NCBI GenBank assembly: GCA_965644265.1
Contig: OZ286468.1
Location: 38,626,001-38,690,000 of the forward strand
Reading direction: 5' to 3'
DNA from: Glycera tridactyla
Lineage: Eukaryota
Length of the DNA: 64,000 nt
Below the pieces are notes generated by a model, which made no database searches, had not been told where the DNA came from, and saw only the letters and a program-made list of their open reading frames with translations. Position numbers and translations under genes: made by a program. Positions 56,148 to 63,712 of this stretch are shown here, piece by piece (within the stretch, counting starts at the first letter, position 1; the number at the start of each line of letters is the position of its first letter).

Positions 56148-56816
56148 AGTGAAATTCCTATTCTGCCTTCTGATCGCCCAGCCCTACATTTGCCTGGAAC
56201 TGAAGAACCGACAAATAACGATACTGACATACATGCAATGACTGCTACTGCTACTACCAAAAATAACAAAGCCTCCGCTAGTGTCAATGATGAACCCAAT
56301 GATAAGGATGACAATCCACATGCTGATCTTGGCCAAAGAAATAATCCTCGTAAAAACACTTTTGAAGACTTCCACCATGCCCTATCTATTCGTCAAAATA
56401 AAGGTCAATCGCAAAATCAAAAATCCGGCTATAGATCCTATAGTGTCAAATATGACATCAACAGGTACTGGCAAAATGGCAACTACACCAACAACAGCAA
56501 CTACAACAGCAATTTCAATAACAACAACAGCATCACCGGTCCTAATTATCAAGGCCAGCAATTATACCAACCCCAAAATCATAACTTCCAAAGACCACAT
56601 GCTAATGTTCCGTCTTTTAACGGTCCGAGCAGGAGTCAACTGCGACCAAACGCGCGAGCTTTTGTACCCGTCGGGCCTAGTCTGAACGTGCAACCAGCCC
56701 ACCAATCCCCACAGCCCCCTCCGGTGTGGAATGGAAGTAACTACGAATATCAACAACACTTCCCGCCACCAAACTTCAACTGGACCCAACAGCAAGCACA
56801 ATCGTGGCAAATCTGA
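56148..56816 (+). CDS. LINE ORF1-like C-terminal fragment, N/Q-rich, PAM2-like motif
   Basis: Open from the first inserted base for 222 codons; N/Q/Y/P-rich; SQLRPNARAFVP. Confidence 0.6.
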   Translation, partial: SEIPILPSDRPALHLPGTEEPTNNDTDIHAMTATATTKNNKASASVNDEPNDKDDNPHADLGQRNNPRKNTFEDFHHALSIRQNKGQSQNQKSGYRSYSVKYDINRYWQNGNYTNNSNYNSNFNNNNSITGPNYQGQQLYQPQNHNFQRPHANVPSFNGPSRSQLRPNARAFVPVGPSLNVQPAHQSPQPPPVWNGSNYEYQQHFPPPNFNWTQQQAQSWQI

Positions 56817-58416
56817 TATAGTCGACATGGCCTATGTTCCCTTTTACCGACGCCACTTCCCGAGGATAGATATACCAACTCTCGTGAGTAAAATAGCCAT
56901 CTGAACTATATTCAAAATTTGAGCTTCTCGCTTTCCCCTGGTCAAGTCATTGACTACGTGTACTTCGCCCGCAGTCGAGGACCGACCCTGTAGCTAGATT
57001 TTCTATAAATAGATTGATGATTGAATCTCAATATTCCGCCCTCACAATCTCCCGATTGTACTTACTCCTAATCACAATGCCCATGAAGCAAACCCAGCAG
57101 ACATCTATCTGATCTCTCAAAAGGCATATTGTGATCATGTGCGTACATATTCTATATTGACAACATATGGACATGAAAGGGTCATGAGTCTAGCTCGCAA
57201 TTTCTTGCGGTATACGTGTGCACCGATGCGTACATGTAGAAGCAACTAAGAATGAATGAGTGAGCGTATGCGCACGCTCCACGGTCGATTTACCTGAGCA
57301 TGGCACACTGAAGCAAATGCTGATGCCTGCAAGTGAATGCGTAGCATATGCTCACATTATACATGTTGATTTGCCAGAGCATGGTATTATCAAAGTATAC
57401 CACCTTTGAAGATCTTATTGCAAGAACTACCAATCATTTTAGACATGTATGACAAACTGTTGCAAGTACGGCATATAGTTATAGCCATTCATAAATGTAG
57501 CTTCTACCCTAAACTAATTAGGATGATGAATCTATCCTGAACGAGGTCAAGTAAGGTCAACGTGTGTGTTGTCAAATCAAGCGAATAACTATATAGAACA
57601 TGAGCGTGTGTCCATATGTGAACCACGCATCCATGTGGGAGGCAGTGTGTTAAGGTTTAGAAAATCCAACTATACTTTTGAAAACCTGGTGCAAATTGCA
57701 TGAAATGCTTCCTAGTAGCGAAGCATGAAATGGTTGAGTGTTTACGCATTCAACCATGCCCTGTGCCTGGATGCTGGTTAACAATTGTCTGTGTCCCCAT
57801 GATCATTTAAATTGAAGAATATGCCGGTGTCATAATCTGCCATGTTCACCTAGCATAAGATAGGGCTATCTGTATTAAGCACACTCTCGCTAGACGGAGG
57901 GCCATATGTGGCGACAAATCACTAAGTCTGAATATAAATATCTCTGTATGTTGTTCCAAGAAATCGGAATATGATCAAATAACAAATATGCTATCTCAAA
58001 GTGCACGTCCTGTATCTTGTATGCCAGAGCTAATAAACCACAGTTGTGAAACAAATGTCACTAAGTGAAGTCAATTCCAATACACCATCGGAGCTGATCT
58101 GTAATTGGGAGAAACCGCCTCTACACCCCCTCCTACCGCTTATTACTCATCCCTCCACCGCAACCCCCCCCCCCCGGACCTCTCATAGCAATCAGCCCAC
58201 CAGGCATTGAAGCACGAGTAGCGCGCGGATCGGCGCACTGCCACCTATAGTTTCTTGGTCATCATGAGAATATCCTCCACTAGATGTCAAACTGTATGCG
58301 ACTCTCTTGAACACAAATTGCAACCTAAACATTGATACTAAGCATCTATTCTGATGCAATCTCGAAATTAAACCATATTCTCTACACCATACCTCTATAG
58401 TACTGTTTATTTTCAG

Positions 58417-59238
58417 GAGTGTACCGCAAGTGACCGAAGGCGCTCTGCGAGACGTGTAAACTATAGAGGACCTGACAAACTCTTCAGAGCTAAAGAAATC
58501 TTAGCTGTGAAAGGACACCCAAAGCTGCTCTTCCTAGGAGACTCCCATGTGACGCATCTGACGAATGCTAAGGAGAACCTAAACGAGCTTGACGATTTGA
58601 AGCCGTTCCTGAGAGATACAACCGAATTAGGTGTAGGAGGATCGAAGATTTGGTGCCTTTTTGAAAACTTGAACTGTGAGGAGATGAGTGATGATAAGAA
58701 ACTGCAATATGGGAACCAGTGGTCAGCGCTTATCGATTCATCCTGGAAGCCCGACTACATCATTCTCATCATAGGAGGAAATGATTGTGAAGACCTAGAA
58801 GCTCACCTATCGAACATTGAGAATGGGGAACTTCCTGAACTGGATGCTCTCAGAGCAAATCGTGATTTGAGAACCTGGGACACTGAGTTGCTCCCACGAA
58901 TCTTCAACCTAATAGATGAAGTGAACAGGGCCTTCCCTGGTACACCCATAGCACACATCCCGGTTTTCCCGCGTATTTGGTGGCGCACAGAAACACGCAG
59001 GCTTGCCGACTTCATAAATTACAAATTCTACGGAATCTTCAAGGTAGACTATCCAGTCCGTCAGTTACTTACAAGGTCTTTGTACTACTACAAAGACAAA
59101 CCAAAAACAGGAAGTGGATATAAAGATGACATCCTCCCGGGTTTCCTCTTGGATGACAACGTCCATCTCAATGATAATGGATATCGCATTCTTTTCCGAG
59201 AAATAATCTCTAAAGTGATGGACTACATGAATGATTGA
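58417..59238 (+). CDS. SGNH/GDSL hydrolase (esterase) inside the LINE; main exon
   Basis: Blocks LFLGDSHV, GVGGSK, IIGGNDC and LDDNVHLNDNGY are all present; Arg-rich DRRRSARRVNYR upstream; the exon starts at tttattttcag| with no in-frame ATG between the upstream stop and the GDS motif. Confidence 0.85.
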   Translation, partial: ECTASDRRRSARRVNYRGPDKLFRAKEILAVKGHPKLLFLGDSHVTHLTNAKENLNELDDLKPFLRDTTELGVGGSKIWCLFENLNCEEMSDDKKLQYGNQWSALIDSSWKPDYIILIIGGNDCEDLEAHLSNIENGELPELDALRANRDLRTWDTELLPRIFNLIDEVNRAFPGTPIAHIPVFPRIWWRTETRRLADFINYKFYGIFKVDYPVRQLLTRSLYYYKDKPKTGSGYKDDILPGFLLDDNVHLNDNGYRILFREIISKVMDYMND

Positions 59239-63048: not shown

Positions 63049-63675
63049 TAGCGAAACTTGTCAAAGCGCCATCTATACACTGAAAGTATGTCTTTGATAG
63101 CATGTGTCCAAGCGCCATCTATAGTCTAGGCAAACTAGACGTTGTATGAATCTGGTCATGATTGGACCGAGTGGAGACTCCATACAGGAGTAACCACAAG
63201 ACAAACTTTAATGGAAACTGCACATAGCTCTGTGAAAGTCCTTAAAAGCTCTACAGCACCGCATCCCTGTACAATATTGGACCACTGTGAGATTTCGTGG
63301 ATGATTAGCTACTGGGACAACCTGGAATGAAGTCTGTGTAATAAACATGGATGATTATTCAATATCCCACAATACCACATCTCTACCTGATAGTGAAGAA
63401 AGGTGAGATCCGCATGTGAGTAGTCACCGGGGCAGCCCAGAATGGAGTCTGTGTATTGAACATGGATGACTATTCAAATTCATATGATCTTATCTTACAT
63501 ATCCACTTCACTCACCTATCGATCGTCAACCAGTATATTCCTGATATAACTGAATTGTACCTTGTTAAATAATTATCTTCTGTATTTGGTATATGTGCTT
63601 TATTGTTTGTTTGCATAAGCGTGTTATATGACCTCTCGGGGTCACTTGTTAATGTGTATCATCACCATCTTATGC

Positions 63676-63712
63676 AATAAAAAGATTCTTATCTTATCTT
63701 ATCTTATCTTAT
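63676..63712 (+). repeat. LINE 3' tail: AATAAA followed by (CTTAT)5
   Basis: Directly visible; tandem-repeat tails are typical of CR1/L2-group elements. Confidence 0.85.

Follow-up and report, generated by a model that had tools for sequence, protein, structure and literature searches.

Loss of an intron from the sense strand is the textbook proof of retrotransposition, and LINEs (long interspersed nuclear elements) are copied via RNA. How, then, could a LINE have an intron in one of its own genes? The question is raised by a stretch of 64,000 nucleotides (nt) of Glycera tridactyla DNA (assembly GCA_965644265.1, contig OZ286468.1, positions 38,626,001–38,690,000 of the forward strand), herein called the window, whose own positions are used throughout; features are on the plus strand unless stated otherwise. 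The LINE spans 56148–63711. An initial annotation had described it as a fragment of open reading frame (ORF) 1, an SGNH esterase gene that appeared to be spliced, and an ORF2 for an APE endonuclease and a reverse transcriptase (RT). All the landmarks that it named were found in the sequence: the flanking TCATC copies, the ORF1 stop at 56816, the first esterase exon at 56827–56883 with its GTGAGT donor, the acceptor at 58417, and the SGNH blocks. Judged by its sequence, the element is a copy, 5′-truncated within ORF1, of a three-cistron LINE lineage with an L1-type ORF1, a separate SGNH esterase gene, and an APE-RT ORF2.

The predicted intron of the esterase gene

The ORF1 frame of the window copy ends at a TGA (56814–56816) and, 10 nt further on, the ATG at 56827 opens a short esterase exon of ATG plus 18 codons (exon 1, 56827–56883). 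The donor GTGAGT follows at 56884. The predicted phase-0 GT-AG spliceosomal intron is 1533 nt in length (56884–58416), holds 25 in-frame stops, and closes with a pyrimidine tract and a CAG acceptor, TTTATTTTCAG ending at 58416, directly before the SGNH frame (exon 2, 58417–59238). The blocks of the SGNH domain are GDS at 58537–58545, GVGG at 58630, GGND at 58774, and DNVH at 59155. As had been noted, this frame has no ATG before the GDS block, its earliest Met being at 58684.

The 2.04-Gb genome was searched with the esterase frame, which gave 141 scored matches of 40–100% identity among 3406 candidates. Eighty of the 141 were taken with their flanks, from the top and across the identity range, and 10 loci from one young family were added later. 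Denominators of 81 refer to the 80 relatives plus the window, and those of 80 to the loci with an anchor, which L033 does not have. Since the same layout, with the whole 5′ part, was present at dispersed loci, we rejected the idea that the element is chimeric or transduced DNA. An ORF1-esterase fusion, or a start of the esterase at an ATG of its own in exon 2, was likewise rejected for the intron-bearing clade, in which the compared copies had neither an in-frame ATG nor a continuous frame.

As the anchor for the acceptor we took a conserved motif that lies 17 codons into the esterase domain. In 78 of the 80 anchored loci, YAG was found directly before the first homologous esterase codon, behind a pyrimidine tract (54 CAG and 24 TAG); the exceptions are L096, in which it is shifted by a frameshift, and L098, which has CCG. 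Because TAG is an in-frame stop, the register of these 24 acceptors cannot be a matter of protein-coding conservation. The dinucleotide AG was depleted at −4 to −30 of the acceptor (14 vs 44). Upstream, a search with the exon-1 peptide motif gave 67 matches in 65 loci, against six on the control strand, and 64 of the 67 had a GT exactly 45 nt past a Pro codon (GTAAGT 37, GTGAGT 13, GTAAGC 7, others 7). With eight more recognized by a profile scan, a 19-codon exon ending in a phase-0 GT after the ORF1 stop was detected in 72 of the 81 loci, and in 10/10 loci of the further young family exon 1 and its donor were also present; the splice dinucleotides are thus conserved across copies, as the initial annotation would have it. 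Exon 1 was not found in L031, L033, L037, L044, L066, L067, L090, L093, and L108; L066, L044, and L108 each begin to match a close relative inside the intron. An exon-1 motif also occurs at G000:C11:84252857-84252882, about 29 kb upstream of the L044 exon 2 and on the same strand, perhaps separated from it by nested insertions in the intron. The exon opens with ATG in 62 of 64 loci, and this ATG is 1–49 nt past the ORF1 stop in 54 of 64, those with a traceable ORF1.

Intron lengths range from 284 to 1680 nt and fall into all three classes modulo 3 (16/23/25). Almost none of the window intron could be aligned with that of the closest families, L032 and L034. Chance is not the source of these signals, as donor and acceptor keep their registers from family to family at SGNH protein identities of 33–100%. 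Over 18 disjoint family pairs, the proportions of nonsynonymous and synonymous differences (pN and pS) were 0.12 and 0.72 for exon 1 and 0.10 and 0.75 for exon 2; for the adjoining intron codons they were 0.66 and 0.71, and 0.62 and 0.67. By this measure both exons are under purifying selection, again as anticipated. A GTRAG donor, a pyrimidine tract, a YAG acceptor, and a removal that restores the frame are the features of a U2-type intron, and from these comparisons the spliceosomal intron in the esterase gene is very likely real. No second conserved acceptor was found in front of ORF2 among the 74 loci compared for the ORF2 start.

A sister clade without the intron provides the joined form. 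One exact degenerate pattern for contiguous exons 1 and 2, run genome-wide, gave 11 matches (control, 0), all of them in this clade. A search with one of its elements scored 132 places, from which 20 more were fetched, so that 31 loci were compared; in all 31 the exons are contiguous, with an ATG exactly 57 nt (19 codons) before the position equivalent to the junction, and in 12 the esterase ATG overlaps the ORF1 stop. Quick trees placed intron-bearing and intron-less elements on one branch each, by RT (25 rows, SH-aLRT 92, and 19 rows, 100, respectively) as well as by esterase (26 rows, 95, and 22 rows, 100). In some unnamed proteins from outside datasets, too, the exon-1 peptide runs straight on into the esterase domain; such contiguous proteins hint that the intron was gained, yet they could derive from spliced transcripts. 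Three other outside relatives, P0016, P0022, and P0031, have predicted proteins that start near the exon-2 start, after a Gln codon, and may be intron-bearing relatives in other organisms.

Two further observations concern the intron-less clade. In L177 (G000:C7:36458748-36468747), a single case, ORF1 and the esterase form one frame of 1256 codons. The spacer between esterase and ORF2 in this clade has arrays in which a 40-nt hairpin containing an internal loop is repeated about 4–8 times, spaced 80–130 nt, with variable sequence between them (L172:3900-4620, also L168, L174, L175, L177, L165, L166, L129, and L173). The stems vary among families with pairing maintained by eye, and the arrays could be protein-binding RNA sites or monomers of a DNA enhancer. 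No repeat array was found in the intron or the spacer of the window copy.

Intron retention and the RNA template

The genome-wide junction pattern, which would catch 52 of the 64 intron-bearing loci if they were spliced, detected no spliced copy of the intron clade. L040, L041, and L048 are 99.1–99.6% identical over 8.4–8.8 kb, lie on three contigs with different flanks, and all keep the intron; ORF1, both exons, and ORF2 are all intact in 11 of 28 extended intron-bearing copies. In L066, the sequence in common with its 99% relative begins only inside the intron. Since near-identical, intact, and dispersed copies keep the intron and no spliced ones were found, unspliced RNA very likely serves as the template of retrotransposition, and the proposal of the initial annotation on this point is supported.

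Its comparison with retroviral env is inexact, as the splice skips no upstream gene and joins two esterase exons right behind the ORF1 stop, so that the predicted spliced RNA would consist of ORF1 plus esterase. Behind exon 2, the window copy has a predicted internal poly(A) signal, AATAAA with a GU/U-rich downstream element (59416–59460), 177 nt past the esterase stop. Within its subclade, 21 of 30 family representatives (expected, 6.6) carry AATAAA at 20–350 nt past the esterase stop, compared with 1 of 24 in the intron-less clade. Behind the signal of the window's subclade, GU/U trimers number 5.7, against 0.9 where AATAAA is intronic (p=1.4e-6). On these counts, it is probable that splicing in the subclade of the window is coupled to early termination.

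Farther downstream, ORF2 has a leader of its own. RCTCYCC occurs within 300 nt upstream of the ORF2 ATG in 46 of 49 representatives, and the density of ATG falls from about 28/kb before the motif to 1–9/kb after it, figures of 30.1/kb and 4.9/kb having also been obtained. In the window copy, the motif and ATG-poor leader occupy 60014–60085, with a single ATG at 60067, and are followed by the conserved ORF2 start ATG at 60086. We suggest that RCTCYCC marks the ORF2 leader, as an internal entry or start site.

The explanation that we favor, and hold on balance to be the likeliest for a three-cistron LINE with a conserved and likely intron, is that an early end of the spliced RNA, at the internal poly(A) site, accounts for the intron being kept. 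One 5′ promoter would yield two RNAs. Splicing would define exon 2 as the terminal exon, with cleavage about 200 nt past the esterase stop, and the resulting message would contain ORF1 and the esterase, translated by reinitiation behind the ORF1 stop. As it would end before ORF2 and before the 3′ recognition end with its hairpin and tail, this RNA would never be copied. The unspliced RNA would read through, make the ORF2 protein (ORF2p) from the ATG-poor leader beginning at RCTCYCC (through internal entry or a separate start site), and bear the 3′ recognition end, being the only template. The intron would act as a switch between accessory proteins and replicating RNA. A broader version, to which we give rather less than even chances, is of an ancient LINE lineage with a virus-like three-gene programme from one promoter, in which spliceosome and poly(A) machinery would toggle between full-length genome RNA and a short message for ORF1 and the esterase, ORF2 would be translated by internal ribosome entry, and the intron would have been gained and then kept through the whole radiation; the hairpin arrays of the sister clade would perhaps serve the same control.

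Several points weigh against this explanation or against the counts behind it. The branch-point motif YTRAY is only weakly enriched (25 vs 16 of 45 introns), and inspection of three full-length copies by eye did not reveal a target-site duplication (TSD). The second intron-bearing subclade has AATAAA in 5 of 25 representatives (expected, 6.7); because it keeps the intron without an excess of the signal, early termination via AATAAA is not the whole story, and another route, e.g., selection of the template in trans ahead of splicing, may also be at work. The expected counts were obtained by mononucleotide shuffling, and families that are related do not count as independent. Moreover, the boundary between the subclades was set after data on these loci had been viewed, and L109 and L110 were counted in the second subclade, yet both trees put them on the side of the window. 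The junction pattern misses 12 of the 64 loci and mutated copies, and would miss the largest young family (L182–L200), whose exon 1 has His at the second Arg of the pattern.

Template choice of this kind could also be the general cause of retention. ORF2p would select nascent or nuclear unspliced RNA in trans by the 3′ hairpin and tail, the poly(A) site being a later addition in one subclade. We regard this as unlikely, though it fits the second subclade, which keeps the intron without the poly(A) signal, and both the separate ATG-poor ORF2 leader (46/49) and the conserved 3′ hairpin with its short-repeat tail are in agreement with it. LINEs of this kind are known for stringent 3′ recognition (PMC3747384), and Penelope-like elements, for which selection in trans has been proposed, retain introns (PMC8557442). 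However, a separate tailed ORF2 message should be copied too, and in the L186 family no excess of copies starting at the leader motif was found (by a crude count, 110 first-look candidates fell upstream and 68 downstream). Trans-selection also leaves the poly(A) signal and downstream element in 21 of 30 representatives unexplained.

A distinctly improbable alternative is that spliced full-length RNA is sometimes copied, with the copies dead for lack of a required cis element (an enhancer, export, or packaging signal) that lies in the intron, as in the human L1 SpIREs, which provide the precedent (PMC5860796). Two 7-mers do recur in the introns, in 15 and 13 of 45, the top shuffled 7-mer reaching 12. 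Dead spliced copies should, however, persist in the genome, and the junction pattern found none; introns of neighboring families barely align, and the large intron-less sister clade thrives. That there is no spliceosomal intron at all, the signals being due to chance, the frames being joined by ribosomal bypassing, or exon 2 being translated alone, is highly improbable given canonical GTRAG and pyrimidine-YAG signals at fixed codon positions across 33% protein identity, lengths in all three phases, TAG stops at the acceptor, many copies without Met before the catalytic Ser, and exact colinearity with the intron-less clade.

Cistrons, insertion site, and neighboring features

The ORF1 fragment of the window copy (56148–56816) is 45–60% identical to ORF1 of L032 and L034. 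Where intact, ORF1 of the relatives is about 770–1100 amino acids (aa) in length. Sequence searches with ORF1 were weak or blank, with nothing meaningful in PDB. A model of the L048 ORF1 core (pLDDT 79) has a predicted coiled coil, RRM, and C-terminal domain (CTD), and its top 10 Foldseek matches are all human L1 ORF1p (E 1.5e-6 to 1.4e-4). By these three predicted parts, ORF1 is of type II (L1-like). Its C-terminal region has a PAM2-like motif, i.e., one that interacts with poly(A)-binding protein (window 56640–56675; residues 858–870 of the L092 ORF1, with Pfam PAM2 E 0.025, under the cut-off). The full-length copies L040, L041, L043, L046, and L048 start with GATGGCG, which was found upstream of ORF1 in 13 of 31 loci. 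We take this motif to resemble a YY1 site.

The esterase of the window matches Pfam Lipase_GDSL_2 with E 8e-6, under the curated cut-off of that family. The catalytic S, G, N, D, and H are kept in 77, 77, 77, 75, and 75 of 78 copies, respectively, down to 33% identity, and the predicted fold of the intron-less relative L113 is that of an SGNH hydrolase (pLDDT 95.6; residues 1–20 at 86–91). By catalytic residues and modeled fold, the protein is a predicted SGNH hydrolase. In structure it resembles ZfL2-1 (rank 45, TM 0.28) no more than it resembles cellular SGNH enzymes. A word-index protein search gave 790 candidates, none at E<=1e-3, while HMMER with esterase representatives detected 81 unnamed relatives in other datasets, 19 of which were inspected. 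A PDB sequence search had nothing for a single esterase and weak SGNH matches for the profile; an atlas search led to generic SGNH clusters, and none of the 131 pattern matches of a metagenome scan was confirmed.

An APE domain lies downstream of the esterase in nearly all sampled loci, after a spacer of 450–2340 nt. A conserved ATG of its own opens ORF2 in 71 of 74 loci, and intact frames in the relatives are 930–1080 aa. That of the window copy (60086–63048) was delimited by tblastn with the intact L034 ORF2 and matches Pfam Exo_endo_phos (PF03372) and RVT_1 (PF00078); it has one frameshift near 61798–61804, a lesion (near 61800) absent from the initial annotation. Between the esterase and the leader motif of L057 and seven relatives, 100–150 nt upstream of the motif, is a conserved two-helix RNA-like element (L057:7622-7706), with 94.5% of cells paired and three pairs changed on both sides (5/500 shuffles) in the eight sequences. 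Similar blocks occur in other groups of the window's subclade (window ~59830–59920). No Rfam match at gathering level was found within 56100–63800.

The 3′ untranslated region (UTR, 63049–63711) contains a hairpin at 63629–63644, AATAAA at 63676, and a (TCTTA)5 tail at 63687–63711. Similar 3′ ends with short-repeat tails were present in 20 extended loci, the window included. A hairpin and a short tandem-repeat tail in place of poly(A) fit the CR1 group (CR1, L2, Crack, Daphne, and Kiri) and are not unique to it; among the 120 matches listed by an RT protein search there was no clade-named protein, and the RT trees consist solely of unnamed LINEs from the present genome. The ORF1 type, like the tail, is compatible with the CR1 group. 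APE and RT in ORF2, dispersed copies, 5′ truncation, a 3′ tail, and a TSD (seen in the window copy only) are the properties of an APE-type LINE.

The TSD consists of TCATC at 56143–56147 and again at 63712–63716. The insertion is within an exon of a host gene family, four paralogous genes of which (L203–L206) show the empty site with one TCATC each, and the host exon continues in frame after the right copy. This exon (54940–56147 plus 63712–64000) belongs to a multi-copy family with paralogues on C28, C32, C11, C18, C47, and C17; it has no Pfam match, and the host copy in the window has a stop at 55894–55896. Elsewhere in the window, two open frames of 334 and 392 codons lie on the minus strand at 27443–29763.

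Comparison with known retroelements

An esterase is known in ORF1 of CR1, L2, and RTEX LINEs (PMC3905857, PMC4120745, PMC13343379). The present element resembles those of CR1, L2 (ZfL2-1), and RTEX in being an APE-RT LINE that has, upstream of ORF2, an SGNH domain whose catalytic residues are intact, and in its 3′ hairpin and short-repeat tail (PMC3905857, PMC13343379, PMC4120745). In those elements, a coiled coil in ORF1 is followed by the esterase as the C-terminal part of the same protein, whereas here the esterase is a separate cistron, with a predicted intron, after an L1-type ORF1 with RRM. This is not the esterase-type ORF1 of ZfL2-1 and CR1, defined by a fused esterase and no RRM. None of the esterase ORF1 proteins in RepBase is reported to have an RRM (PMC3905857), so that the pairing of both in one element bears on the role of retrotransposon esterases. 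The element also resembles CR1/L2-lineage LINEs with a type II (transposase-22, L1-like) ORF1, including Daphne, in its coiled coil, RRM, CTD, and non-poly(A) tail; in the passages covered, these have two ORFs, no middle cistron, and no intron (PMC4120745, PMC13343379).

Full-text literature searches listed no LINE in which a coding intron is conserved or an esterase stands alone as the middle gene; Repbase, Dfam, and subscription papers were outside these searches, so a database entry is possible. Within that scope the element appears to be a variant of LINE organization without a match. Some green-algal LINEs may have introns. The excerpts of PMC9940879 and PMC9977147 neither confirm nor exclude this. 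A LINE lineage that would need splicing for one protein and nevertheless keeps its intron implies that, in a non-LTR (long terminal repeat) element, the choice of template is separable from use as mRNA. With its intact and recently multiplied elements, and a natural intron-less control clade, one could study cis preference, the stringency with which the 3′ end is recognized, and how a distal ORF2 is translated.

Splicing is known from other retroelements. Penelope-like elements also keep spliceosomal introns; they have another class of RT, and their characterized introns are in the 5′ UTR, overlapping the promoter, while the one described here is in a coding gene in mid-element (PMC8557442). 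Human L1 RNA likewise has splice sites, but its splicing is harmful, lineage-specific, and leaves spliced copies (SpIREs), whereas here the predicted splicing is conserved, would be needed for a protein, and has left no copy that we found (PMC5860796). The env gene of retroviruses and gypsy elements, and the GDSL ORF3 of bdelloid LTR elements, are third genes typically expressed from a spliced message, and in one case the product is a GDSL esterase. There the gene is behind pol and the splice removes gag-pol, while here it lies between ORF1 and ORF2 and the predicted splice removes only non-coding sequence (PMC5408684).

A closer model than env would be the shGAG RNA of plant Ty1/Copia elements (EVD), which is spliced and terminates early, whereas the long RNA retains the intron (PMC5580714). 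There, too, the genomic copy keeps its intron, the spliced RNA makes only a non-catalytic protein, and the unspliced one is both the source of RT and the genome (PMC5580714). The poly(A) signal that such a scheme would place shortly after the spliced exon is found in the subclade of the window (21/30), with no excess in the other (5/25). EVD is an LTR element in which the splice creates the stop of GAG; in the non-LTR element described here, the splice would instead build a third protein (PMC5580714).

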